Origin: an uncultured Bdellovibrionales bacterium
GTDB lineage: Bacteria; Patescibacteriota; Minisyncoccia; Moranbacterales; UBA1568
DNA: 64,000 bases
Assembly (NCBI GenBank): GCA_964612055.1
Contig: CAZTBI010000001.1
Span: forward strand, 228,824-292,823
Reading direction: 5' to 3'
A program made the translations under genes and the position numbers. The notes beneath the pieces were generated by a model, which was not told the origin of the DNA, searched no databases, and worked only from the letters and a program-made list of their open reading frames with translations. Shown piece by piece: positions 8,526 through 20,937 of this stretch. Numbering within the stretch: position 1 is the stretch's first letter; every line of letters starts with the position of its first letter.

Positions 8526-8867
8526 TTAGTCAATGGAGATAATGTCGTCCAGAACACTGTCCAAATCATCGATACTTCGTGAACCAATGCCATCAGCCTT
8601 GCACGATGGGTTCTTCAATTCTGCTCGAACAGTTTCTACCACCGAAACCGGCTTCACTCCCTTGATAATATTGTCATTTACGGCGATATTTGGCCCCTCC
8701 TTGCAGCCAGACAGACAGCGTGGGGACTTCATGACCAACGCTTCTTCAGAGGCAAATCCTTGCTTCAAAGCAAGGAGAATATTTTCTGCCCCTCTTTGGC
8801 AGCAGCTTTCCTCGAAACACACTTTGATAGTGGCTCGGACATCTTTTTGTGGAGTGATTTCTTCCAT
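8526..8867 (-). CDS. Thioredoxin-like [2Fe-2S] ferredoxin (NuoE-like fold)
   Basis: C-x4-C (VCFEESCC) and C-x3-C (RCLSGC) followed by GPNIAVND, resembling TRX-like 2Fe-2S ferredoxins. Confidence 0.55.
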   Translation of the reverse strand: MEEITPQKDVRATIKVCFEESCCQRGAENILLALKQGFASEEALVMKSPRCLSGCKEGPNIAVNDNIIKGVKPVSVVETVRAELKNPSCKADGIGSRSIDDLDSVLDDIISID

Positions 8868-8908
8868 ATCCGTCCTACTCTATCACGCTTCCCATCTCTT
8901 GACAATAC

Positions 8909-8943
8909 TCAAAAGAAAGGGTATAAATAGAAGATTTCTTTGA
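8909..8943 (+). promoter_or_regulatory. Putative sigma70 promoter for the GNAT genes
   Basis: TTGACA, 17-nt spacer, TATAAA. Confidence 0.35.
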
Positions 8944-8991
8944 CAATCTAACTCTGTCCGCAAGACAGCTCTCAACAACTGAGGAGTCACC

Positions 8992-9605
8992 GTGAAAAAT
9001 ATCACCGCAACCGCATTGCTTTCTGATGGACAGGAAGCTCCAATCGAAACCTACAGTGTCGAACCAAATGATGCTGAGTACCTGCAGTTATTTCGACGTA
9101 TCGTGCATTTGCACAGAGACGCGGCTCTCGTGACGCATGGACTGATCGCTCTCAGCAACGAGGCAGGCAAGTACTTCGATCGAGACCCCTTCGAACAAGC
9201 CACGGGTGACTATCAAAGGTACGCCCACTCCAAGGAAGAGCATTTCATCCACTGGATCATCGTGAAAGGCAGGAAGAAACAACAAGCCCACGTTGGTGGC
9301 ATTGTCGAATGGACCCCTATCACTACCGGAGAAGCAGTCATTCTGCGTCTCTATGTTCTGAAGGCCTTTCGACGCCGCGGTGCGGCAACGGCGCTCCTCG
9401 CAGAAGCTGTTGGGCATATGACCGGCCAAGGATACCAATTCGTCACGGCACTCCCACAGAAGAATCCACGCGATGGCAAAGGATTCCTCATCAGAAGCGG
9501 TTTCTTTCAAACCATGCTGGGGTTTTCCAGAAAGGTCTCCAGGCACCAACTGAATCAACCTCCCAGCTCGAGGAACTCGAGCCGATCATTGTTGTCAACG
9601 ACTAA
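8992..9605 (+). CDS. GNAT family N-acetyltransferase, probably frameshifted or miscalled near 9480-9530
   Basis: GTG start with a GAGGAG SD. GNAT motif A LKAFRRRGAATALL. Frame 1 runs to 9873 with a low-complexity tail overlapping the next gene, while frame 0 ends cleanly at 9605 just before the next SD. Confidence 0.45.
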
Positions 9606-9626
9606 ATACTCACCAAGGAGCATGCG

Positions 9627-10151
9627 ATGCATATCCGTGTCGAATCCCCCTACGTACCGATTGATGGCGAGCTCGCCGCCTTTCGTACGCTCACTGGTCA
9701 AAAAGCCGCACAACTGCATCGACTCACCCAAGAAGCAGCCACCGTGCCAAGAACAACTCTGCACAGATTCGTTTCTGCGCGACATGGCAAGTATGTCTTT
9801 GTCGCCTTTGCCACAGAAAGCGACTTCCCGGTTGCCTTCGCCACCTGCATCGTCGTCGAAACCGGCGTCATGAGCTACGGCATCATCACCGACTTTGTCG
9901 TCTTGGCAGAATGTCGTAGAAAGGGAGTGGCTCATCAGCTGGTCTTCGACATCGTGAGAAGAATGAGTGACGCAAGCGTCCTTCTGGCTTCAGGAAACAA
10001 ACAGCTAACGCTACTCCACGTGGCGATAAGCTCACACCTCATTTCTTGTCGCAAGCTCTTCGAGGGCTGCGGGTTCACGCTCGTGCACGGCAACAATGGA
10101 AACGTCACTGAGAGCATCTACGAACTCCGCCTCACGAAGACTGAAGACTGA
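9627..10151 (+). CDS. GNAT family N-acetyltransferase
   Basis: AAGGAG SD 6 nt upstream of the ATG; motif A VVLAECRRKGVAHQL. Confidence 0.7.
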   Translation: MHIRVESPYVPIDGELAAFRTLTGQKAAQLHRLTQEAATVPRTTLHRFVSARHGKYVFVAFATESDFPVAFATCIVVETGVMSYGIITDFVVLAECRRKGVAHQLVFDIVRRMSDASVLLASGNKQLTLLHVAISSHLISCRKLFEGCGFTLVHGNNGNVTESIYELRLTKTED

Positions 10152-10178
10152 GGATTGCGGACGAAGAACAGACAGACA

Positions 10179-10209
10179 CCCGAAGCGAAACACGCGCTTC
10201 GGGTTTTTC
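10179..10209 (+). terminator. Rho-independent terminator
   Basis: CCCGAAGCG-AAACACG-CGCTTCGGG followed by TTTTT. Confidence 0.55.
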
Positions 10210-10307
10210 ATTTGTAAAATTGACAGTAAATAAAGGTTGCGCCATGATGCTATCAATCGACATCGTCGAGAGTTCCTTTGTCTTTCAACCCCTCTTGGGA
10301 GAAAGTC

Positions 10308-10628
10308 ATGCAAACAGCCCTTTGTTTCGATGCTCAAGATCTCGCGTTTGAAGCAGCAGTCAGACTCCATGCTCCCTGTCCACAACACGAGCTCCTGCGC
10401 TACTTCCTCTATCCGCAGAAATACTGGGAAGGCTTTCTGGAGCGCTTTGGCAGACCCGGAGCAACACCCGAAGAACAGGCTTCCAAAGAAGGTCTCGAGT
10501 ATGTCTATGCCAAATGGTTCTTGGCACTGCGCGAAGCCTGCATGGACCCGGAAAAGGAAATCGTGGTCACCCACGGTTCGCCGGACAGCGACTACAGGTT
10601 ACTCCGGAGCACCGAGGAGCAATCATGA
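10308..10628 (+). CDS. Hypothetical protein, high GC
   Basis: GGGAG SD. The stop overlaps the next start (ATGA). The ORF-track start at 10278 is a TTG. Confidence 0.4.
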   Translation: MQTALCFDAQDLAFEAAVRLHAPCPQHELLRYFLYPQKYWEGFLERFGRPGATPEEQASKEGLEYVYAKWFLALREACMDPEKEIVVTHGSPDSDYRLLRSTEEQS

Positions 10629-11020
10629 TCACACGAGATGATGCTGTCAGAAAAGAGACAATGGCTGATTTTCATACCATTGTCGCGCAAGCTGCAGACT
10701 GCATCGCTCAGGCTTTGAGCTCCATGGAACAGCCGCCACCTCTACAACTGACGCAGGACGAATACGAAAAGGGCGAATGGCCAATACCAGCACCCTACAG
10801 AAAGCTCATCGATCAAGTCCGGAGAGAATTTCAGAATGAGCGACTGTACGAAATTTCAAACGCTCAACTACGCCTTGCAATTCTTCAAGGGACTGAACGA
10901 GTTTCGCTTTTGTATGTTGGTGGAATGCTTGTTGTCACACCCAAGCCAGACAGATGCAGCACGCACTGGAGTCATCGTGGAAACTCTCGTCGTCGCACAT
11001 CGCTCCGCAATCAAGCCTAG
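10625..11020 (+). CDS. Hypothetical protein, high GC
   Basis: GAGGAG SD. Translationally coupled to the upstream ORF. Confidence 0.45.
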   Translation: MITRDDAVRKETMADFHTIVAQAADCIAQALSSMEQPPPLQLTQDEYEKGEWPIPAPYRKLIDQVRREFQNERLYEISNAQLRLAILQGTERVSLLYVGGMLVVTPKPDRCSTHWSHRGNSRRRTSLRNQA

Positions 11021-11131
11021 GCCAACATACCTCGGCTTTTTCATTTCTTGACTTTGTGATATATTTTCGATAGAGTTCAAGGTTCGTGAAACCGCGAACA
11101 TCTATCAACCCTTCCCCAACGGAGGTTTCTC

Positions 11132-11470
11132 ATGACAGCACAACAGTTGTTTGCCAAACAGGCGTTTGCCATGGCCTTGAGCTCGGCCTGCGGGGTCGAC
11201 ATCAAGCCCGAAGCAGTGTCCGTCTCGTTCATGTCGGACGAAGTGCTCCAATGCCTCGTCGTCCGTCCCGGAGGTGTCGCCGAAGGAACCTTCCATGGCG
11301 ACGAAGACGGTGGCATGGTTCACATCGAATCGATCGGCCAGAAGCGCTGCGCCTATACCTACTGGTTCGAGGCCTGCACGGACGGCACGGCGGTCCCGAT
11401 CGAAACGGTGCTGGCATACGCCAACTACGAAGATCGCGTGATCCAAGTCCTGGAGCTGGAAGCAGCCTGA
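11132..11470 (+). CDS. Hypothetical protein, high GC
   Basis: GGAGG SD 6 nt upstream; followed by a terminator. Confidence 0.5.
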   Translation: MTAQQLFAKQAFAMALSSACGVDIKPEAVSVSFMSDEVLQCLVVRPGGVAEGTFHGDEDGGMVHIESIGQKRCAYTYWFEACTDGTAVPIETVLAYANYEDRVIQVLELEAA

Positions 11471-11504
11471 GACCACAAGCGCCGGCACGCCCGGTACACA
11501 AAAC

Positions 11505-11543
11505 GGCAGCACCAGTCCCTGGTCTGCCGCTTTTCTTTTTTTT
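11505..11543 (+). terminator. Rho-independent terminator
   Basis: GGCAGCACCAG-TCC-CTGGTCTGCC followed by GCTTTTCTTTTTTTT. Confidence 0.5.
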
Positions 11544-11557
11544 ATATCAAATTTTCT

Positions 11558-12076
11558 CTAACGCGCCAGAGAAAGGTCGGCGGAGTTGAAAAGCACAGAG
11601 AAGTCCTCGCACCAGGTCAGCACGTAGCGATATTGTGATAGGTCGGTACCTGCCGGTACCGTATAATTTATATTTCCCTCTGTTCCCTTGATCTTCCCGA
11701 GATCAACGTATTTGGTCGCTTGGAGATCAGTCGAAAGATAGACGCGCAGGTCCGGGCCATTGATTGTCTTGTAGTTTTCATAACGGATAATCGTCTCGTC
11801 ACCGTTTTTCACTACCCGTACCGTCCCCGATGCTGGGTGAGCTGTTGTTGCAACCACAGGAACAGTTCCAGCGGCGCTCTTATTCGGGTCAGGCTCCCCT
11901 ACCGCAATCGACTGGGGTATTTCTTTCGACTGACCATCCTGACGTGCAGGTTCGGGCAAAACATCATTGACGACTTTGTTCCGAAGCAACGGAGAAAGCG
12001 CGTACCATGCGATAGCGAGCGCTACAGTAGCTACAAGCGCGAACAAGATATGCTTCTTTTGTATGCCAGCGCTCAT
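11558..12076 (-). CDS. DM13 domain protein, membrane anchored
   Basis: C-terminal LRVYLSTD...LGKIKGTEGNINYTVPAGTDLSQYRYVLTWCEDFSVLFNSA resembles the DM13 domain. The start was set at MSAGIQKK, just before the TM helix. Confidence 0.55.
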   Translation of the reverse strand: MSAGIQKKHILFALVATVALAIAWYALSPLLRNKVVNDVLPEPARQDGQSKEIPQSIAVGEPDPNKSAAGTVPVVATTAHPASGTVRVVKNGDETIIRYENYKTINGPDLRVYLSTDLQATKYVDLGKIKGTEGNINYTVPAGTDLSQYRYVLTWCEDFSVLFNSADLSLAR

Positions 12077-12123
12077 AGAGTTGCAACCAATGTTTATGCG
12101 TGTAGTATAGCAGATTGACAGGA

Positions 12124-12372
12124 ATGAGCTTTTACGGCACCATGGGGAAGCGTATTTCTCACCCCCCCAACTGGTCAAGGAGACGAGAAGTGTCGAAAAC
12201 TGGACAACAAAGCCAAGGTGGTTCGGGCAAGCCGAACTTCAAACCCTACAGGAAGGGTTCCAGCAAAAAGGGTGCGGCTCGCCGGAAAGAGCGTGCGGGC
12301 AAGCAGTGGGCTGCTGGCGAAAAGAAAAAGGACAAGCTGCGCGAAGAGCGCCAGAAGTCCGACAGGTGGTAA
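12124..12372 (+). CDS. Possible small highly basic protein
   Basis: ORF in high-GC DNA followed by a terminator-like hairpin, with a weak SD. It may be spurious. Confidence 0.2.
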   Translation: MSFYGTMGKRISHPPNWSRRREVSKTGQQSQGGSGKPNFKPYRKGSSKKGAARRKERAGKQWAAGEKKKDKLREERQKSDRW

Positions 12373-12439
12373 TCCGCCTTCAATCGAAACAATCGGCAGA
12401 CAACGAAGTCCCGGTAGCAACGCTCCCGGGCTTTTTCAT

Positions 12440-12690
12440 TGACACAAAAGTCTGAGGGAGTTACCTTATGAGCAACAGAGTATGAAGAAGCATAGGAGTG
12501 TCTAATCTTCCATTAGCTGGGCACTTCAGCACAGATGGTCTAGAGCAAATGCTTCTCGGTGGGTAGGATTCCATAGGGAAAAGTCCCCCCTTATGACATG
12601 TTACCTTCTCGCAAGGCTTACGAGCAGCAACCTGAGATGGCGCGACTCTGTTGGTCCGACCACTGGTCTGGGGCATAAATAAAGAAGGCG
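12440..12690 (+). ncRNA. Candidate non-coding RNA in a roughly 250-nt gap flanked by terminator hairpins
   Basis: No convincing ORF or SD. TTGACA at 12439-12444. It ends at the strong bidirectional terminator at 12687-12727. Confidence 0.2.
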
Positions 12691-12727
12691 TCGGAGCAAC
12701 CGCTCTCGACGCCTATTTCTTTTTTTC
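12683..12727. terminator. Bidirectional Rho-independent terminator
   Basis: GGCGTCGGAGCAACCGCTCTCGACGCC with an A-run upstream and a T-run downstream. Confidence 0.6.
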
Positions 12728-13111
12728 TTCCTTCTTTTTGATCGCTCTCCATTGTTTCTGGTAAAAGCGACAACGCTTTGCCAACCATTGGATGGCCTGG
12801 TGATAGCTCATCTCCTGGTGCTCTTCGAGAAACTTAATCACCCCGCCGTGCCGACCACAACCAAAACAATGATAGGTTTGCATGGTTGAACTCAAAAGAA
12901 ACGAAGGCGTTTGCTCCTCATGAAATGGGCAAAGAGCTCTGTACCTCCTTTGCCCATTACGATCTCGCCTCAGTTTCATGAAGCACCTGATCACTGCAAC
13001 GATATCAGCTCTACAACAGAGCCGATCGACGTACTCTTTCGAATAATACATCGTAAGCTCCTGGTTGAAAGAACAATATTCCTTTGTATCATCGAGCCAA
13101 GAGAAAGTCAA
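12713..13111 (-). CDS. Stand-alone DnaG-type CHC2 zinc-finger protein
   Basis: CPFHEEQTPSFLLSSTMQTYHCFGCGRHGGVIKFL matches the primase zinc-binding domain. No TOPRIM or polymerase domain follows. Confidence 0.6.
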   Translation of the reverse strand: MTFSWLDDTKEYCSFNQELTMYYSKEYVDRLCCRADIVAVIRCFMKLRRDRNGQRRYRALCPFHEEQTPSFLLSSTMQTYHCFGCGRHGGVIKFLEEHQEMSYHQAIQWLAKRCRFYQKQWRAIKKKEEKKK

Positions 13112-13464
13112 TTCTTAAAGAAATAAAAAACCCGCACCTTTCTTTCGAAAGATCCGGGTATCTGAGGAACCGAAGAGGGGCTAGGAAAAGCGGAACCTCT
13201 GCGGTATGCGAAAGAGCGGTCGACCGGACACGTAGCGACATTCCAGTCGCCCATATTCAGTCAGCCTCCTCAGGCGAAACAGCAACTGTGCGCAGACGCA
13301 GCCAATTTCTCGCGGGGCCACCCAGCACCTCTGGTTCCTATCCCCAGGTTTGGGTCGCATACCTTTCCGCAAGCCGTACTGGTGTTGGCACCACCCTGCT
13401 TTTTCCACGGCAATGAGGATGTATTTGTCATCCGCTCCAACCTTCACAAGCATGGCAACCTCCT

Positions 13465-13761
13465 TCAGATTGAGTACTTCGACCAAACAAGGATGATGTA
13501 CTTCTGGTAAGAAGCGAAGTCTTGCCCTTTGGCAGCGCCCTCCGCGTCTATTTTCCAAATGGACTCTTCCTTCCCAGGACCATTCCCTTTGACGATGTAG
13601 TGCTCGCCAGACTTCCAAAGAGCGAAACAGGTGTCTTGCTTTCTGTCTGGGCAGTCCACAGGGGCTATGATCCTCGCCCCACGGAGGTCAGGCTTTTCCT
13701 GAGCCAAGACTCCAGTGTGGCACAGAAGGGCCAACGTAAAGATAACGAGGTAGCGTGACAT
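13465..13761 (-). CDS. Small secreted hypothetical protein
   Basis: AAGGAG SD 9 nt upstream of ATG (MSRYLVIFTLALLCHTGVLAQE signal peptide). Confidence 0.5.
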   Translation of the reverse strand: MSRYLVIFTLALLCHTGVLAQEKPDLRGARIIAPVDCPDRKQDTCFALWKSGEHYIVKGNGPGKEESIWKIDAEGAAKGQDFASYQKYIILVWSKYSI

Positions 13762-13845
13762 GATTGGGACTCCTTTCACCATGCCAAAAGAACTCTTTCT
13801 GCTACCCGCTTTGTAGCACCAGGCCGAAGTGAAGTCAATCTATCC

Positions 13846-14133
13846 CTAAGCTTCGAAGCCGATTTTGGATGTCGGAGCCTCCGATGGGGCGACATTACCG
13901 AATTGTGATTCGTATTTAGCCAGGTTATCGGTCATGGCCATGACTATACGTTTGAAATGACTAGGACTGACAATCACTCGGGCATTGAGTGTTCCTGTTG
14001 GAGGAAAAACATTCAAGAAGTCCAAAACGAATTCTTCTTTCGTGTGCAAAATATTGGCCATATTTGAATAGTGACCTCGCAGAATCTCGTCACTGGCCTT
14101 AATCTGAATTTGTGGTGCTTGTGGTTGTTCCAT
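13846..14133 (-). CDS. DUF3467 family protein
   Basis: MEQPQAPQIQIKASDEILRGHYSNMANILHTKEEFVLDF...FKRIVMAMTDNLAKYESQFG matches what I recall of DUF3467. Confidence 0.55.
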   Translation of the reverse strand: MEQPQAPQIQIKASDEILRGHYSNMANILHTKEEFVLDFLNVFPPTGTLNARVIVSPSHFKRIVMAMTDNLAKYESQFGNVAPSEAPTSKIGFEA

Positions 14134-14201
14134 AATGTTGTAATTATTTATTTACCTGCATGACCCTCCAGAGGCGGGCAGGCATTCGCACCCCTTTTTT
14201 T

Positions 14202-14288
14202 TCAACTTCTCATCCAGAGTTTATCCGCCGAAGCCAGGCGTAGGAGGACTTTGATTTGAACTTGGTTTGGTTGTTGTTGTTCGGTCAT
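14202..14288 (-). pseudogene. Truncated N-terminal copy of a DUF3467 gene (MTEQQQPNQVQIK...) plus a shared GGATGAGAA tail; copy A
   Basis: 28-codon mini-ORF starting 14 nt after the upstream gene. Its first 13 codons parallel the DUF3467 N-terminus. Confidence 0.45.
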
Positions 14289-14302
14289 AAGTTTTATTTA
14301 TT

Positions 14303-15130
14303 TTAAATTATTTGTGATAACTTCAGACTCTCCTGTATCCCAAGCGGTTTGATATGGGTGAGCTTTTGCATGAGAGTGTTATCGAGAGATGTATCCACAA
14401 GCATACCGTCTGGTTGTGGTGAAGGCATTGGCACACCATGGAGCCCAGCTGTGGGTACTCCCAGTGTCTCCATTCCCTCTCGGGTAAATTCATACACATT
14501 CATTCTCTCGCCAGAAATATGAATGAGACCAGTATAGTCCGAAAGAGTCAGTATCGTGATGATTTCGGCAGCTTGGTGATAACTGAGAGGAGATTTGTAC
14601 ATGTCAGTGAAACGAGACACTTCCTTCCCTTGGTTCAGATCCTTACGAACTACTTCCAGTCGATCGTCGAGTACACCACTAACGAATCCATACATATAGC
14701 TCGGTCGGATGATGCAATGATTTTCCGTATTCTTTCGAACGAGGTTCTCACAAAGTTCCAGATTCCTACCGTAGAGCGTTACAGGCTGAGGTTGATCGGA
14801 TTCTGTATACATACCTTTCTTGCCATCAAAGATACCATCACTTGATATGTACACTATTCTCGAATTCTTAAAGAACTGGAGAAAGCGCTTCATGGCTTGT
14901 TCGAGAGCGGCGCTATCCTCTGTAAATTCTATCTTGGCTGGGATGATCACTGCGTCAATCTCTTTGCCAGCAAAAACTTTCTCCGGATCATCATTGAAGA
15001 AATCATACTGGCGAGAGGTCTTAAATTTCTGATGCATATTATGCGTCATGACAACATCAGCACCACGTTCTTTGAGTACGCGACATAATTCTTCTCCAAG
15101 AAACCCTGTCCCTATAACCGCTACTCGCAT
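14303..15130 (-). CDS. NAD(P)-dependent sugar epimerase/reductase (RmlD-like)
   Basis: MRVAVIGTGFLGEEL Rossmann motif. Confidence 0.65.
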   Translation of the reverse strand: MRVAVIGTGFLGEELCRVLKERGADVVMTHNMHQKFKTSRQYDFFNDDPEKVFAGKEIDAVIIPAKIEFTEDSAALEQAMKRFLQFFKNSRIVYISSDGIFDGKKGMYTESDQPQPVTLYGRNLELCENLVRKNTENHCIIRPSYMYGFVSGVLDDRLEVVRKDLNQGKEVSRFTDMYKSPLSYHQAAEIITILTLSDYTGLIHISGERMNVYEFTREGMETLGVPTAGLHGVPMPSPQPDGMLVDTSLDNTLMQKLTHIKPLGIQESLKLSQII

Positions 15131-15147
15131 AGTCTTTAATTTTATCC

Positions 15148-15846
15148 TTAGAATTTTCGATGGGAAAATTGGACGATATAGGCAAGCTGAGTTTCCATAT
15201 ATTCTGGTTTATCTCGACGGTAGGAAAAGTATTTTTCCTTGAGACAGTAGGAACACTCACCGGAGTCTATTATTTTTTCAGGCAGTATACCGAGACTTTC
15301 GGCCTGCTGACGCATAATCCCCTTCAAATCAACATGAATACCATTGTCACGAGAGATATATTCTGGATACTGAGCAAATGATGAAAGGACGTCTTCTTGT
15401 ATTTCAAAATGTTTCGCACAAATACCAGGACCAAAAGTAAGAATTATTTCAGATCTTTTCCCACCAGCTTTTTCAATCGCAGAAAGAGTCTCGGCAATAA
15501 CTCCAGCGACAATACCGCGCCATCCACAGTGCGCCAAGCCGATGATGCCAGAGTGTTTTTCTTCAAAGTAAACCGGGAAACAATCAGCTCCGGTGAGCGT
15601 GAGAATAATATCTGAGTCTTTGGTAACGAGAGCATCTGTTTCGGGGGTGATATATGGAGAATGTCGATTGATCATTGCCACCCGTGTACCATGTACCAGG
15701 TTCGCAACAACAATTTGCTTTCCGCCAAGTCTGAGTGCTTCGAAAAACTCTTTACGATGAGCAATATTCTCTGCGCGCGGATTGGTAAGCGGCAAATACA
15801 TCGAGCCATCCTTCTTTTCCGAAAATCCTTTCAAAACTTTGTTCAT
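15148..15846 (-). CDS. pgeF: Laccase-domain protein YfiH/PgeF
   Basis: GADCFPV and HCGWRG motifs. Confidence 0.8.
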   Translation of the reverse strand: MNKVLKGFSEKKDGSMYLPLTNPRAENIAHRKEFFEALRLGGKQIVVANLVHGTRVAMINRHSPYITPETDALVTKDSDIILTLTGADCFPVYFEEKHSGIIGLAHCGWRGIVAGVIAETLSAIEKAGGKRSEIILTFGPGICAKHFEIQEDVLSSFAQYPEYISRDNGIHVDLKGIMRQQAESLGILPEKIIDSGECSYCLKEKYFSYRRDKPEYMETQLAYIVQFSHRKF

Positions 15847-15864
15847 AAGATTATTATAGCACTC

Positions 15865-15918
15865 TTGACTTTCTTATGAAAAAGTGCTATAAAATGAGGT
15901 TGGCAAATTCCTTGCCAA
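15865..15918 (+). promoter_or_regulatory. sigma70 promoter (TTGACT-17-TATAAA) followed immediately by the inverted repeat TTGGCAA-ATTCC-TTGCCAA, a candidate operator
   Basis: Read directly upstream of the high-GC ClpP-like gene. Confidence 0.45.
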
Positions 15919-15963
15919 TCCGATTAAATAATCGGCCAGAAGATCTTTTACAGGAGAGACAGC

Positions 15964-16536
15964 GTGAATTTCAACCACTTCTTCCCGCTCTACACCAGCC
16001 ACATGACCGGCGATGACGCCGTGACCGCTACCCAAAGCATCCAGAACGGGGAAGCGTGCGGAGTGGTGATCAACTCGCCCGGTGGCACCATGAACAGCTT
16101 CATGGACGAAGCCGTGGCCCTCATCGATCAGCGGTTCACGGCTCTGGGACTCACCATTGGCTCGCTGGCTGTCGACTACTACCTCTGCGCCAGTACCCGG
16201 ATCGCACTCCCCAGCTCCACCTTCTTCGTCCACCACCCGCAGTTCGGGCCAGAAGAAGAAGCAGGCCAGACGCTGGAACAGCTGTTCTGGAAGTACGAAG
16301 TGAGCCGGGCGCTCATCGAAACTGGCCAGGCATCGGAACGGGCACGCAAAAGCCACAACGAGCTCATCCGCGTGATCCTCGGTACCGCCGACTGCCAGTA
16401 TTTCGGCGTACGATGGGTCGCCAAGCGGACCGGTCTCGAGCCGGGCATCGTCGACCAACTCATGCGCGACGAAGTCATGCTCACCGCGAGCGAAGCGCTC
16501 CAACTGGGGTTCGTGCATCACATCATCGACACCTAG
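15964..16536 (+). CDS. ClpP-like (S14/crotonase-fold) protease homolog, high GC, probably horizontally acquired
   Basis: GTG start with an AGGAGA SD. VVINSPGG, FVHHPQ and LTASEALQLGFVHHIID resemble ClpP-family cores. The gene is about 62% GC. The antisense ORF 15874-16608 was judged spurious. Confidence 0.5.
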   Translation: MNFNHFFPLYTSHMTGDDAVTATQSIQNGEACGVVINSPGGTMNSFMDEAVALIDQRFTALGLTIGSLAVDYYLCASTRIALPSSTFFVHHPQFGPEEEAGQTLEQLFWKYEVSRALIETGQASERARKSHNELIRVILGTADCQYFGVRWVAKRTGLEPGIVDQLMRDEVMLTASEALQLGFVHHIIDT

Positions 16537-16554
16537 GTCAAACGACCAAGGCAT

Positions 16555-16600
16555 CAAAAAAGCGCTGACAGAGAAATCTGCCAGCGCTTCTTCATTTTTA
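16555..16600. terminator. Bidirectional terminator
   Basis: AGCGCTGACAGAGAAATCTGCCAGCGCT with flanking A and T runs. Confidence 0.5.
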
Positions 16601-16652
16601 TTTCTCATCCGTCGCTTTGATTTGAATCTGATTTGGTTGTTGTTCGGACATA
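16599..16652 (-). pseudogene. Truncated N-terminal DUF3467 copy B (MSEQQPNQIQIKATDEK-stop)
   Basis: 17-codon mini-ORF starting 5 nt after the upstream gene stop. It is homologous to DUF3467 codons 1-16 and to copy A. Confidence 0.45.
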
Positions 16653-16656
16653 ATTA

Positions 16657-17238
16657 TTACTTTAGAAAAGGATATTTCTCCTGAAAGAAAGTTTTGAGAC
16701 TAACAAAATTATCTTCTCTTACATGACCCCATCCTTGAAGATCTTGCTTTCTACTTTGTGCAATGAATATATCAATTACAGAAAAGAAATCTTTTATTTG
16801 AGATGCATAACTCTTAATTATTTTCCCTAGCTCTTCTTCATCGATAAAGTTGTGCTCTTTATTTTTTTTGAGAACATACATAAGCTCCTGAAGAAGCATA
16901 AAAAAGTCGGTTGCTTCTTCTCTCACCATTTCTTCAGCTCCACCTCCCGTGTACTGAATGCCACCTTTTGTTATCTTAAAATCGTTTAATGGAATACGTT
17001 TGACTAGAATGCTCTGAAGATACTCATAAAAATGAAGGAAGAAAAATTTTTCGTAGTACTCTTGAAACTTTCTGCCATAGTAAAAGGTTTGTGTTACCTT
17101 TTTCTGAAAATCTCTAACACTTTTTTGGTTTTTCTGATGTAAGTATGCAGCAGCTGCAACTGCTATCCCTAAACCAGATAATAAATCACCCATGTTTCCT
17201 GCTTCTTGACTAGTGACGAGTTTAATCAAATCTTCCAT
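16657..17238 (-). CDS. Hypothetical protein, AT-rich
   Basis: 193-aa ORF with no recognisable motifs. Confidence 0.4.
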   Translation of the reverse strand: MEDLIKLVTSQEAGNMGDLLSGLGIAVAAAAYLHQKNQKSVRDFQKKVTQTFYYGRKFQEYYEKFFFLHFYEYLQSILVKRIPLNDFKITKGGIQYTGGGAEEMVREEATDFFMLLQELMYVLKKNKEHNFIDEEELGKIIKSYASQIKDFFSVIDIFIAQSRKQDLQGWGHVREDNFVSLKTFFQEKYPFLK

Positions 17239-17263
17239 AAACAGTTAGTTTTTCAATTATTAG

Positions 17264-17293
17264 CCAAAAGCGGGGCGAAATGCCCCGCTTTTA
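17264..17293. terminator. Terminator downstream of dnaK
   Basis: AAAA-GCGGGGCGAAATGCCCCGC-TTTT. Confidence 0.6.
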
Positions 17294-17302
17294 TGCTACA
17301 CC

Positions 17303-19231
17303 TTATTTTTTCTCTTCGCTAGGCTTCTCCTCGCCAGCAGGCTCGGTTTCGGCGTCCCTTGGAGCTTCCGTAGAGCCTTCCTTCTTCTCGCCATCTTCTG
17401 CCTGGCTCGGCGAAGCTTTAGCGGAGTCGGCAGCGGCTTGGTACAGTTTTTGTCCGATTTTTTGCGCCTCTTGAGACAAAACCTCGGTAGCTTTCTTGAT
17501 GGCTTCTAGATCATCGCCATTCTTTACCTTGTTCAATTCCGTGATGGCGTCTTCGACTGGTTTCTTCTCATCAGCCGTGACCTTGTCACCCGCATCCTTG
17601 AGTGCCTTTTCTGTCGTGTAGGACAGAGTATCAGCCATATTACGAGCTTCGATCAATTCTTTCTTTTTCTTGTCTTCATCAGCATGCATCTCAGCATCCT
17701 TCTTCATACGCTCGATCTCCTCTTTGGAAAGTCCAGTTGAAGACTCGATACGAATGTTCTGACTCTTGCCGGTCGCCTTGTCCTTGGCGGTTACCGAGAG
17801 AATACCAGAAGCATCAATGTCGAATGTGACTTCGATCTGTGGCACCCCGCGTGGAGCAGGCATGATGCCATCGAGGATGAACTGACCGAGAGATTTGTTG
17901 TCAGAGGCCATCTCACGCTCACCCTGGAGCACATGAATCTGCACGCTCGGCTGATTGTCAGACGCGGTCGAGAAGACCTGTGAGCGGCTAACTGGGATAG
18001 TCGTGTTGCGATCAATAAGCGGTGTCCGGACTCCTCCCATGGTTTCGATACCAAAGGTAAGCGGCGTGACATCAAGCAAGAGCACATCTTTCACCGAACC
18101 TTCGAGCACACCACCCTGGATAGCAGCACCGAGAGCCACTACTTCATCTGGGTTCACCGTGATGTTTGCCTTCTTGCCGAAGAATTTCTCAACAGAAGAA
18201 AGGACAAGTGGCATACGGGTCATACCACCGACCAACACCACTTCGTTGATATCAGAGACAGAGAGCTTGGCATCAGCAAGTGCTTTCTTGACTGGTTCAA
18301 ACGATGCCTCAACCAAGTCACCGACTAATTCTTCCAGCTTGGCACGGCTCATCTTGATCAGAAGGTGCTTCGGACCATCGCTACCGGCAGTGATAAACGG
18401 CTGATTGATTTCTGTTTCTTGAGCGGTCGAGAGTTCAATCTTGGCTTTTTCAGCAGCTTCCTTGATACGCTGGAGCGCCAATGGATCTTTCGAGAGATCG
18501 AGTCCTTCTTGCTTCTTGAATTCATCGAGAATCCAGTGAATAATCCGCTGATCGAAGTCATCACCACCTAAGTGGGTATCACCGTTGGTCGAACGGACTT
18601 CTACGGTGTCTTCGGAAACTTCGAGGATAGAGATATCAAAGGTTCCACCACCTAAGTCATAGACAGCGATCTTCTCATCTTTCTTTTTGTTGAAACCATA
18701 GGCGAGCGCTGCTGCTGTTGGTTCGTTGATGATACGACGGACATTGAAGCCTGCGATTTCTCCAGCTTCTTTGGTCGCTTTGCGTTGCGAATCATCGAAG
18801 TAGGCCGGTACGGTGATGACCGCGTCGGTGATCTTTTCTCCGAGCTTTTCCTCAGCATCCGCTTTCAGTTTGGCGAGGATCATACCACTAATTTCCTGTG
18901 GTGTGTATTCTTTGCCACCCATGACGATCTTCACCCCTTCACCGGCCTGAATAACCTTGTACGGCAAGGTCTTCATGTCGCGGCTCACTTCTTCATCGTT
19001 GAAATGTCGTCCGATGAGACGCTTCACGGAGAACAGCGTGTTCTCTGGATTGGTGACCGATTGGCGCTTGGCAAGCAAACCTACCAGACGCTCATTAGTC
19101 TTGCTCATCGCTACCATCGACGGCGTGGTGCGATTCCCCTCCTTGTTTTCGATAATGCTAGGAGTCCCTCCTTCGACAAATGCCATCGCCGAGTTGGTGG
19201 TCCCGAGATCGATACCTAATATCTTGGCCAT
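17303..19231 (-). CDS. dnaK: Chaperone DnaK (Hsp70)
   Basis: [16 protein letters not shown] and other Hsp70 signatures. Confidence 0.95.
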
Positions 19232-19271
19232 ATGTTTGTAGTTACTACTTATATTCTTTATTATCTGAAAG

Positions 19272-20177
19272 TTATTTTACTGATACTTTTGCTGGGCGGA
19301 TCACTTTGCCTCCAAGTCGGAAACCATTTTGGAGTACTTTCGCTATCACATGCTTTTCTGCTTCTTTCTTCCCTTGCCCGTCCGTAGCCTCGGCAGAGGA
19401 GGGTTCGTTTTCTTGACTGACGGCTTCATGAATAGTCGGATCAAATGCGTCCCCTTCTTTTGCTTCTATCACTTCGACACCGTTCTGCTTTACTACGTCT
19501 TCCAACTGTTTCTCGATGTACTGGATACCAACGACCCAAGGGCTCTCTTTCTGTTCCGGTGGGACATGCATGGTCGCGGCACGGAAGTTATCGAGAACTG
19601 GGATGATATCGAGAACCAATTTTTCTATCAGATAGCCGCCAAGTTCTTTCTGTGATTCCTGCTGACGCTTTTTGTAGTTTTCAAAGTCCGCCTGTATTCG
19701 CTTGAGATCTGTCAGATATTCTTCCTTCTGTATATGAGTTGTAGCAGAACGGATAAACTCCTTTAGCCATGATTTATACTCTTTTCCGGATTCTATCTCC
19801 TCGACCGTCTTCCAATCGTATTCAGAATGTTCATCACTGATATTGATTTCTCCACCTTTGAAAATAGTGAGGTAGGCGAATACCGCTCGGTATGGGTCGT
19901 TGTTTCGGTCTGAATCAAGTTTCATGTGACATCCAGCAACCGCACCCTTGAGGTCAAATTCTATCTCTTCTCCTAATTCTTCTTTAATTTCACGAAACAG
20001 AGCCGCTTCCACATTTTCTCCTGTATCTACTCGACCCCCGGGAAGCTCCCATGGGCCATACTTCTGATGATACTCTGAATCCTCAAACGCATCCTTCACC
20101 AAAAGAAACTTCTTATCGCTTGGTCGGTACAGAATTATTTTCTGACTGAGTTGGAAATGTTCGTAATTTTTGTTCAT
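19272..20177 (-). CDS. grpE: Fusion protein: N-terminal Nudix hydrolase domain plus C-terminal GrpE nucleotide-exchange factor
   Basis: Residues about 1-150 carry a perfect Nudix box [25 protein letters not shown]. Residues about 155-301 are GrpE-like (DFENYKKR helix, [14 protein letters not shown] tail). It sits between hrcA and dnaK. Confidence 0.8.
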
Positions 20178-20181
20178 ATTT

Positions 20182-20937
20182 TTATCCGATGAAATATACG
20201 GCGTTACTGGTTACTAAAATTATTACGAGTGAGGAGCCGAGCATCTTGCGCATGTATTCAATGAGGGATTTGTTCTTGGCGTAGTCCATGCGCTTGGGAC
20301 CGATGATAGCGAGCATGCCGCGTCCTTCGTCTGTCTGATAGGGAGCCACAATCATGGAACAGTTATTGATACCACTGATAGGGTTTTCATTACCGATAAA
20401 AATACGTGTTTCACCATCTTTCAATTTCAGCATGATACCGTCTACTTTTTCATCGAGCGAATCCAGTGTTTCTACCAACTGACAGAGCTCATCCATTTCT
20501 TGAAATTCTGGATTGTCGATCAGTTCCCGAATTCCGAAATCGTAGTATTCATCTTTATCAACGATACCTGAGACGGCGAGGTTACCAGAGAGGGATGAGA
20601 GGAGCTTGGCGGTACTGCGACCCAGGCGCATGTGCTTGGCTTTCAGAGTCAGGAGTTCTTTTTGCAAACGACGTTGATCTTCGCGTGACAGATCCTGATC
20701 CCCCATCATCTCCTCAACGTAGATCCGATACCCTTGGTCAGTCGGGATACGTCCGGCAGAGACGTGCGGTTGATACAGATACCCCTCTTCTTCCAAGGCT
20801 GCCATGTCGTTTCGCAACGTTGCCGAGCTTACTCCGAAATCATAATGTTCAAGCAGTGCCTGTGAACCAACTGGGATCGCTGTCTTGGTGTACAGTTCGA
20901 CGATCGCAGAAAGAAGTTGTTTTTGACGATCATTCAT
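20182..20937 (-). CDS. hrcA: Heat-inducible transcription repressor HrcA
   Basis: HrcA-like sequence. Start set at MNDRQKQLL. The ORF-track start at 20979 is a GTG inside the CIRCE element. Confidence 0.85.
   Translation of the reverse strand: MNDRQKQLLSAIVELYTKTAIPVGSQALLEHYDFGVSSATLRNDMAALEEEGYLYQPHVSAGRIPTDQGYRIYVEEMMGDQDLSREDQRRLQKELLTLKAKHMRLGRSTAKLLSSLSGNLAVSGIVDKDEYYDFGIRELIDNPEFQEMDELCQLVETLDSLDEKVDGIMLKLKDGETRIFIGNENPISGINNCSMIVAPYQTDEGRGMLAIIGPKRMDYAKNKSLIEYMRKMLGSSLVIILVTSNAVYFIG

Follow-up and report, generated by a model that had tools for sequence, protein, structure and literature searches.

Horizontal gene transfer in groundwater Patescibacteria reportedly takes place mostly among Patescibacteria (PMC12455944). 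Among small loci, par-type (Fst/RNA II) type I toxin–antitoxin (TA) systems have convergent promoters and a shared bidirectional terminator (PMC7472228), and UG29 proteins have a DnaG-type primase at their N terminus (PMC9226505). Here we compare such systems with a block of approximately 4.8 kb (8990-13800) in a 64,000-nt window, the whole stretch of DNA analyzed, from the 485,659-bp contig CAZTBI010000001.1. The block lies between a 2Fe-2S ferredoxin-like gene on its left (8526-8867, minus strand) and a DUF3467 gene (13846-14133), which adjoins it as stated in the original prediction, a reading of the DNA letters that took the block for integrated foreign or mobile DNA of high GC content. 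We consider that the interval between these two genes is probably a recombination-driven flexible hotspot of a groundwater Candidatus Moranbacteria genome, a lineage of the candidate phyla radiation (CPR). It contains a gene for a stand-alone CHC2 zinc finger of the primase type and, convergent to it, a predicted structured RNA gene.

Conserved frame and strain-variable units

Named relatives of the RF2 protein encoded in the window belong only to Candidatus Moranbacteria/Moraniibacteriota, at up to 86% identity, and contigs identical or 98% identical to the window were found in public sequencing-run assemblies (Logan) and in groundwater metagenome assemblies, the latter including a Hainich 0.1-µm filter fraction. 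Among GTDB species representatives anchored on the RmlD-like gene, matches were at most 35% identical and gave no usable synteny, and no close relative was reached in JGI contigs. Exact-protein look-ups recovered approximately ten informative related loci, most of them short metagenomic contigs, which are designated here by L numbers; loci L208-L211 represent conspecific strain B, and L212 and L213 conspecific strain C.

The sister species L214 (RF2 and FtsX 93-94% identical) has the gene order of the window, comprising FtsX, FtsE, RF2, DsbA, o106L, o253, the ferredoxin-like gene, the GNAT acetyltransferase genes GNAT1 and GNAT2, o106, o112, the DM13-domain gene, and o105. Amino-acid identity to L214 is 77-94% for the flanking genes and highly uneven inside the block, being 95% for GNAT1, 82% for DM13, 58% for o105, 46% for o106, and 40% for o112; GNAT2 is 62% identical between flanks of 88-94%. 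In L218 and L219 (RF2 85% identical) the site is empty, with the DUF3467 gene only 68 bp from the ferredoxin-like gene, corresponding to window 8868-13845. Comparison with relatives gives a divided answer, the block being absent as a whole from L218 but its left half being kept in order in L214, and the latter synteny argues against a recent foreign insert. Loci L220 and L221 carry other genes at the position of the block. In L206 and L084 (DnaK approximately 83-86% identical) the stretch from dnaK to DsbA retains the finger and RNA genes, DUF3467, DM13, and a ClpP-like gene, but ordered differently.

The conspecific strains have flanks 97-100% identical to those of the window and differ in their cassettes. 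Strain B lacks the RmlD-like gene, o105, o90, the finger gene, and the RNA gene at this locus. In strain C, window 12441-13175, which spans the finger and RNA genes, is exchanged for approximately 2 kb with a gene for a retron-type reverse transcriptase (RT; PADLOC RT_II-A, E 4.9e-25), an additional GNAT gene is present between o82 and DM13, and GNAT1 is absent, its leader and Shine-Dalgarno sequence being fused to GNAT2. In both strains all that is left of o131 is an in-frame remnant of 17 codons, which still overlaps the stop codon of o106 (window 10636-10975 aligned to L208 and L212), indicating a deletion in these strains and not an insertion in the genome of the window. The junctions of the cassettes show only coincidence with gene ends or microhomology. 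GNAT1 DNA is 94.6% identical to L214 between flanking DNA of only 78-83%, with sharp edges at 8927 and 9624, which indicates that this gene was exchanged recently between the sister lineages, in agreement with the within-phylum transfer reported for groundwater Patescibacteria (PMC12455944).

These alignments show that sister lineages have exchanged DNA and that segments have been locally deleted or replaced, with ends at gene boundaries. We envisage the block as a mosaic of approximately ten autonomous promoter-gene-terminator units that would have separate histories, namely GNAT1, GNAT2, o106 with o131, o112, DM13, o82, the RNA gene, the CHC2 finger, o105, and o90, whose predicted products are small, lineage-restricted, and fast-evolving. 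Exchange would proceed by recombination through conserved anchor genes, and the hotspot lies inside a larger plastic region framed by the hrcA-grpE-dnaK operon and, at the opposite end, by the DsbA-like gene and RF2.

Several further features of the variable region were observed in the relatives. The RmlD-like epimerase gene (14303-15147), which adjoins DUF3467, is absent from strains B and C and from the Hainich contig L005. The retron-type RTs of L212 (3146-4192) and L218 (3653-4750) are 63% identical and occupy the same chromosomal region; approximately 360 nt upstream of both are conserved and could be a retron RNA, and in L218 a homologue of o131 lies upstream of the RT gene in divergent orientation. 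Strains without the finger and RNA genes have an element of approximately 380 nt (L208 3760-4150; L212 2344-2722) bounded by a TTGACA promoter and a terminator. The strain B and strain C copies of this element are 91% identical. It has a folding z of -2.4 and no match in Rfam, and it includes a stretch that resembles 16S rRNA by eye; it may be a second RNA gene.

It is possible, if doubtful, that the block is better described as a defense or conflict island in which the GNAT pair, o106/o131, or the finger with its RNA have anti-phage or toxin-immunity roles that drive the turnover. A moderate case that some units may take part in genetic conflict follows from the retron-type RT allelic to the finger and RNA genes in strain C, from the related RT near an o131 homologue in L218, and from the fast and very uneven divergence of GNAT2, o106, and o112. 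Variable cargo between core genes also recalls the Pseudomonas aeruginosa core defense hotspots described in PMC10250203. Fast evolution and presence-absence variation are, however, equally typical of relaxed, dispensable genes. No block protein had a system-specific match in PADLOC-DB 2.0, contrary to the defense island first suggested; the only hits were domain-level matches of the finger to primase-bearing defense-associated reverse transcriptase proteins, RT_UG29 (profile positions 3-106 of 2280) and RTasDnaG-like. Neither GNAT gene has a PADLOC match or an adjoining ribbon-helix-helix (RHH)/DUF1778 antitoxin open reading frame (ORF), so the toxin-like GNAT module of the original prediction finds no support. 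The allele of the window holds no recognized defense system, and we retain the flexible hotspot as the better description.

The zinc-finger and RNA cassette

The predicted RNA gene of approximately 245 nt occupies 12472-12716 on the plus strand. Its promoter (12440-12468) has a TTGACA that does not vary among six lineages and, after a spacing of 17-18 nt, TACCTT, CATGAT, CATTAT, or TAAGGT, and its predicted fold comprises a closing helix round four hairpin domains and then a 3' hairpin and terminator. The terminator, a hairpin with a T run at 12689-12715, is common to the convergent CHC2 gene, and the T run is the antisense of the Lys-rich tail of the finger protein.

RNAalifold predicted 74 base pairs for this element, 19 of them with compensatory changes. 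Pairing holds in 94-95% of cells compared with approximately 43% when the partners are slid, and pairs with double changes number 17-19 as opposed to 1-6 in the slid controls, a value attained in none of 500 shuffles. A covariance model built from five sequences retrieved a sixth copy in L222 (178 bits) at the predicted place, where it lies downstream of the finger orthologue that has diverged most (58% identical) and is convergent to it. Folding energy is weak as evidence for this structure, with z of -2.1 over the entire gap and -0.36 over the core of the RNA. Searches of the window and four relatives against Rfam 15 were negative both at gathering score and with E values of up to 1, and an exact-pattern scan of viral contigs found no copy. 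A housekeeping RNA (RNase P, SRP, 6S, or tmRNA) was rejected on the lack of Rfam or ARAGORN matches and on the missing gene at this locus in conspecific strains B and C, which makes an essential housekeeping role unlikely. We regard the element as a candidate new structured RNA gene outside all Rfam families.

It is improbable that the element is instead a minus-strand protein gene (71-aa ORF o71, 12461-12676) or a conserved site in the DNA, such as one for single-strand initiation that the zinc finger would recognize. One minus-strand frame is indeed open in all five lineages checked, with tblastn identities of 43-69%, and the neighboring gene encodes a primase DNA-binding domain. With only ATG considered as a start, however, this frame lacks one in two of the five lineages (L084 and L206), and all three reading frames of the element look equally conserved in the five-lineage comparison, which suggests that nucleotides and not a protein are conserved. 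The most divergent copy (L207) has its middle third in another frame through indels while the base pairs are retained; o71 as a protein was rejected on such frame behavior together with the covariation. The compensatory pairs, the many G-U pairs that render the fold valid for the plus strand only, and the plus-strand TTGACA promoter and hairpin-T-run terminator flanking the element in six lineages all speak for an RNA gene over either alternative.

The convergent finger gene (12713-13051, minus strand) encodes a 112-aa CHC2 zinc-binding protein of DnaG type (PF01807, E 5e-28) with a basic KQW...KKK tail. It was described at the outset as a stand-alone finger without a catalytic domain, and this holds, as there is no TOPRIM domain in the window and no adjoining dnaG remnant; a 579-aa DnaG aligned to the window matched at residues 11-98 only, and the finger matched TIGR01391 over positions 3-105 of that model only. 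The finger also matched the DnaG zinc-binding domain structures 2au3 and 1d0q at 1e-15. Orthologues were found in six lineages, 58-79% identical and 109-125 aa long, all of them stand-alone and with C41, H44, C62, and C65 invariant. The next matches are generic primase N-termini at most 48% identical, and scans of JGI metagenomes and IMG/VR with the finger alignment returned ordinary primase N-termini only, at up to 51-52%. A decaying dnaG was rejected in view of the missing TOPRIM remnant and the stand-alone state of all orthologues, and the view of the orphan finger as foreign or mobile debris gives way to that of a conserved stand-alone family in six lineages. The promoter (TTGACT) and 5' untranslated region (UTR) of the finger gene (13052-13115, minus strand; GGAATATYGTTCTTTCAAYCAGGAGCTTACGATG) are near-invariant in the six lineages and better conserved than the part that encodes the protein, suggestive of a regulatory site.

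The RNA gene co-occurs with the finger gene, and is convergent to it, in six of six lineages. Together they occupy 735 bp (12441-13175), absent at this locus in strains B and C, and on these comparisons they behave as one conserved, dispensable cassette. We infer a functional link between finger and RNA, a ribonucleoprotein or RNA-regulated module being more likely than a chance neighborhood. Much more tentatively, the cassette may be an undescribed two-component module in which the finger and the approximately 245-nt RNA act as a ribonucleoprotein or RNA-controlled nucleic-acid sensor, an exchangeable accessory that might serve in conflict or defense because it is allelic to a retron cassette.

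Composition, origin, and individual units

The high GC content ascribed to the block is real but smaller than the 55-60% claimed, at 51.9% compared with 47.3% elsewhere in the window. The block is the most GC-rich 4.8-kb window of the 64 kb, its GC being equaled by 0.3% of sliding windows, all of which overlap it, and its tetranucleotide deviation of 0.222 is likewise the highest (non-overlapping windows 0.119-0.194), so composition is not uniform. GC exceeds 60% inside the block only at 11200-11500 (62%). Block genes range from 45% in the CHC2 gene, equal to background, to 60% in o112, with GC at third codon positions (GC3) of 0.45-0.74, and native genes outside the block reach similar GC (DnaK 50.5%). 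The syntenic block of L214 is also GC-rich, at 0.53-0.56 compared with 0.48-0.50 in its flanks. Judged by this comparison, a modest elevation of GC is a lasting feature of the block that the sister species shares; it may reflect exchange among members of a clade whose GC ranges over 40-56%, a GC bias linked to recombination, or both.

Outside the block, a ClpP-like gene (15964-16536, plus strand) with 61% GC and GC3 0.80 is more extreme than the block genes. Automatic gene callers annotate 15874-16608 on the minus strand, antisense to the ClpP-like gene, in its place, and homologues of it adjoin the finger gene in L206 and L207.

The view of the block as a single foreign or mobile piece, recently inserted beside DUF3467 from a higher-GC donor outside the lineage, is very improbable. 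Its deviant composition, the empty site of L218 lying exactly between the two flanking genes, and the failure of most block products to match an annotated family would fit such an insert. No integrase, transposase, relaxase, or replication gene was found among the block products with Pfam, NCBIfam, and PHROGs, however; the block is not flanked by direct repeats, and its edges have no tRNA gene, the nearest (tRNA-Thr) being 2.9 kb off beyond four native genes. A plasmid remnant, also envisaged at first, is not supported by blastn, which gave no match in 72,556 plasmids and likewise none in 50,697 phages. Close homologues of the finger, GNAT2, and o112 fall in few clusters, and the contexts examined are all Moranbacteria-like. 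Gene order and raised GC are common to L214, and the parts differ in history, the finger being at background GC, GNAT1 recently exchanged, and DM13 present in most relatives examined; this within-lineage synteny and mosaic make-up refute the foreign insert. A site-specific mobile element is excluded as far as tested. What survives of the original prediction is that the block is accessory and exchangeable; as a single mobile element it does not stand, being indigenous to the lineage and mosaic. A useful contrast is provided by L218 itself, where a classic mobile island with a serine recombinase, SNF2 helicase, N6 methyltransferase, and tyrosine integrase is present at 12816-20933, beyond FtsX and tRNA-Gln.

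Some points weigh against the exchange hotspot and its cassette as we read them. With only about ten related loci, mostly on short contigs, gain and loss are not reliably polarized, and the absence of the block from one relative and its deviant composition leave room for an old acquisition by the common ancestor of the subclade. Copies of the cassette could be present at other genomic positions in the strains that lack it here, the RNA gene rests on six sequences of one clade from which its structure was also derived, and the cause proposed for the raised GC is conjectural.

Taken individually, the units begin with a promoter-like TTGACA-17-TATAAA at 8899-8927 (plus strand), read from the sequence in the divergent spacer between the ferredoxin-like gene and GNAT1; it had been placed at 8909. 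Two tandem GNAT genes follow as predicted. GNAT1 (8992-9873, plus strand; PF00583, E 1.5e-7) has in its intact form 204 aa ending at 9603, as in L002, L208, and L214, and in the window a 1-nt deletion near 9517 produces a 293-aa read-through ORF. GNAT2 (9627-10151, plus strand; PF00583, E 1.5e-4) represents a fast-evolving, lineage-restricted family with only four clusters among 5.8 billion proteins, 59-94% identical. Both match only generic GNAT or acetyltransferase models in Pfam and PHROGs, the NCBIfam models rimI and PanM being sub-threshold, and neither has a match among PDB sequences. An intrinsic terminator with a 10-bp stem and T run (10178-10204, plus strand) follows GNAT2, and downstream of it is a promoter-like TTGACA-17-CATGAT (10220-10248, plus strand).

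The next genes had been read as a translationally coupled three-gene operon. Coupling is confirmed for o106 (10308-10628, plus strand) and o131 (10625-11020, plus strand) by an ATGA overlap at 10625, but o112 (11132-11470, plus strand; GGAGG Shine-Dalgarno sequence) is a separate unit, having its own promoter-like site (11048-11076) and lying downstream of a terminator-like hairpin. The o106 product, helical by low-confidence prediction, has homologues 46-48% identical in L214, L217, and L084, and its single-sequence AlphaFold2 model is too poor for functional assignment (predicted local distance difference test, pLDDT, 58). The strain-variable o131 has homologues beside the retron-type RT in L218 (39% identical) and beside DM13 in L220 (29%). 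With the highest GC of the block (60%, GC3 0.74), o112 has only three credible clusters among 1.84 billion representatives, an 847-aa match having been rejected as a repeat-protein artifact; its single-sequence AlphaFold2 model (a helix and five strands, pLDDT 71) gave no fold match better than E 0.07.

A bidirectional terminator (11504-11543; hairpin CGGCAGCACCAG-TCCC-TGGTCTGCCG with T runs on both strands) separates o112 from the DM13-domain gene (11558-12076, minus strand; PF10517, E 8.5e-17), which was correctly recognized from the start. Its product has an N-terminal membrane anchor and is predicted to be membrane-anchored or secreted; it is present in most relatives examined and 64-82% identical in L206, L084, L214, and L220. 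Two long gaps in the right half of the block had been taken for structured non-coding DNA. Both hold small ORFs, and only one also holds a predicted structured RNA. Gap 1 (12180-12712) contains the RNA gene and the small, very basic, Lys/Arg/Gly-rich o82 (12124-12372, plus strand), with a likely GTG start at 12190 after an AAGGAG Shine-Dalgarno sequence and a terminator-like hairpin, read from the sequence, at 12410-12436; o82 is 100% identical in strain B and 78% in strain C. Gap 2 (13112-13464) contains the 90-aa Cys-/Arg-rich ORF o90 (13181-13453, minus strand), directly after o105, with an AAGGAGG Shine-Dalgarno sequence and a terminator-like hairpin downstream at approximately 13115-13150; o90 is 93% identical in strain C and was gene-called in L001 and L002. 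The last unit, o105/o98 (13465-13761, minus strand), encodes a small, predicted secreted protein with signal peptide MSRYLVIFTLALLCHTGVLAQ, has a promoter-like site at 13787-13760, and is 98% identical in strain C. None of o106, o131, o112, o82, o90, and o105 belongs to a family in Pfam, NCBIfam, PHROG, or PADLOC.

Good Shine-Dalgarno sequences and several terminators had been predicted for the block; reading its sequence bears out the former, and it has 10 terminator-like sites compared with 5.5 expected from shuffles, in addition to 10 promoter-like sites compared with 3.9. A recurring junction of GGCTTTTTCATT followed by TTGAC, leading from terminator tail to promoter, divides successive units at 10190-10212, 11023-11045, and 12418-12440. 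Beyond the block, the GrpE gene of the hrcA-grpE-dnaK operon (19272-20177, minus strand) encodes a NUDIX-GrpE fusion, as assigned with Pfam for its identical counterpart in L209; L085, L206, and L218 show this architecture too.

Comparison with known systems

The finger resembles the DnaG zinc-binding domain (PF01807; 1d0q, 2au3) in its CHC2 ligands and in a fold-level sequence signature. It differs from DnaG in having neither the TOPRIM polymerase nor the C-terminal helicase-binding domain, in its Lys-rich tail, in being dispensable between strains, and in its RNA partner. The zinc-binding domain of a primase can act in trans between subunits, as in DnaG and T7 gp4. For this reason, and because it is a bona fide DnaG-type domain with invariant ligands and 58-79% identity across lineages, the CHC2 protein could be thought of as a zinc-binding domain that has become separated from the rest of a replicative primase, a housekeeping gene and not cargo, but this is very improbable given that it is missing at this locus in conspecific strains B and C and from the examined region of L218, L220, and L221. 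The genome's own dnaG lies outside the 64-kb window.

With the GNAT toxins of type II TA systems (TacT, AtaT, and KacT) the block has in common small GNAT-fold acetyltransferases in variable DNA. It differs from them in the tandem arrangement of its GNAT genes, in having no RHH/DUF1778 gene, and in family matches that are generic only.

Retrons, comprising an RT and an msr-msd RNA, are similar to the cassette in that a protein gene lies beside a structured RNA with paired 5' and 3' ends, and a true retron-type RT fills the slot of the cassette in a sister strain. In contrast to retrons, there is no RT in the window, and the RNA of the cassette is convergent to its protein partner and not upstream of it. 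No similarity was found between the cassette RNA and the RT-associated upstream regions of L212 and L218.

The par-type loci share with the cassette a small protein gene and an RNA that are convergent, use one intrinsic terminator, and have complementary 3' ends; the promoters of the cassette converge from 12440 (plus strand) and from the TTGACT upstream of 13051 (minus strand) on the common hairpin at 12689-12715. Unlike the hydrophobic peptides of fewer than 60 aa encoded by par-type loci, the cassette protein is a soluble 112-aa zinc finger, and its RNA of approximately 245 nt has a conserved multi-helix core and is not a short antisense RNA. A par-like pairing of the RNA with the 5' UTR of the finger mRNA was rejected, there being no conserved k-mers and duplex energies that are not consistently better than those of shuffled sequences.

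The closest likeness of the block as a whole is to flexible islands and core-flanked hotspots (PMC12455944 and PMC10250203), with which it shares conserved anchors round strain-variable cargo, an atypical composition, a defense-type gene in some alleles (here the retron-type RT), and exchange mainly among close relatives. It differs from them in its very small size (approximately 5 kb), its single-gene units, and the lack of mobility genes and, in the allele of the window, of a recognized defense system; several of its cargo genes are, moreover, old residents of the neighborhood that have been reshuffled and not imports. The locus provides a compact example of strain-level cassette exchange in uncultivated Moranbacteria, with conserved frame, empty site, and alternative alleles. 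It also counsels caution, as a GC-rich unannotated patch in a streamlined CPR genome can be an old flexible hotspot and not a recent insert, and the parts of one such patch can differ widely in history. The RNA and finger pair, a by-product of this analysis, may matter more than the island itself; if functional, it would represent a new RNA-protein partnership and a new use of the DnaG zinc-binding domain. Compared with the described systems, the block is as an island an ordinary flexible hotspot, and its candidate new part is the RNA gene paired with a stand-alone primase zinc finger.

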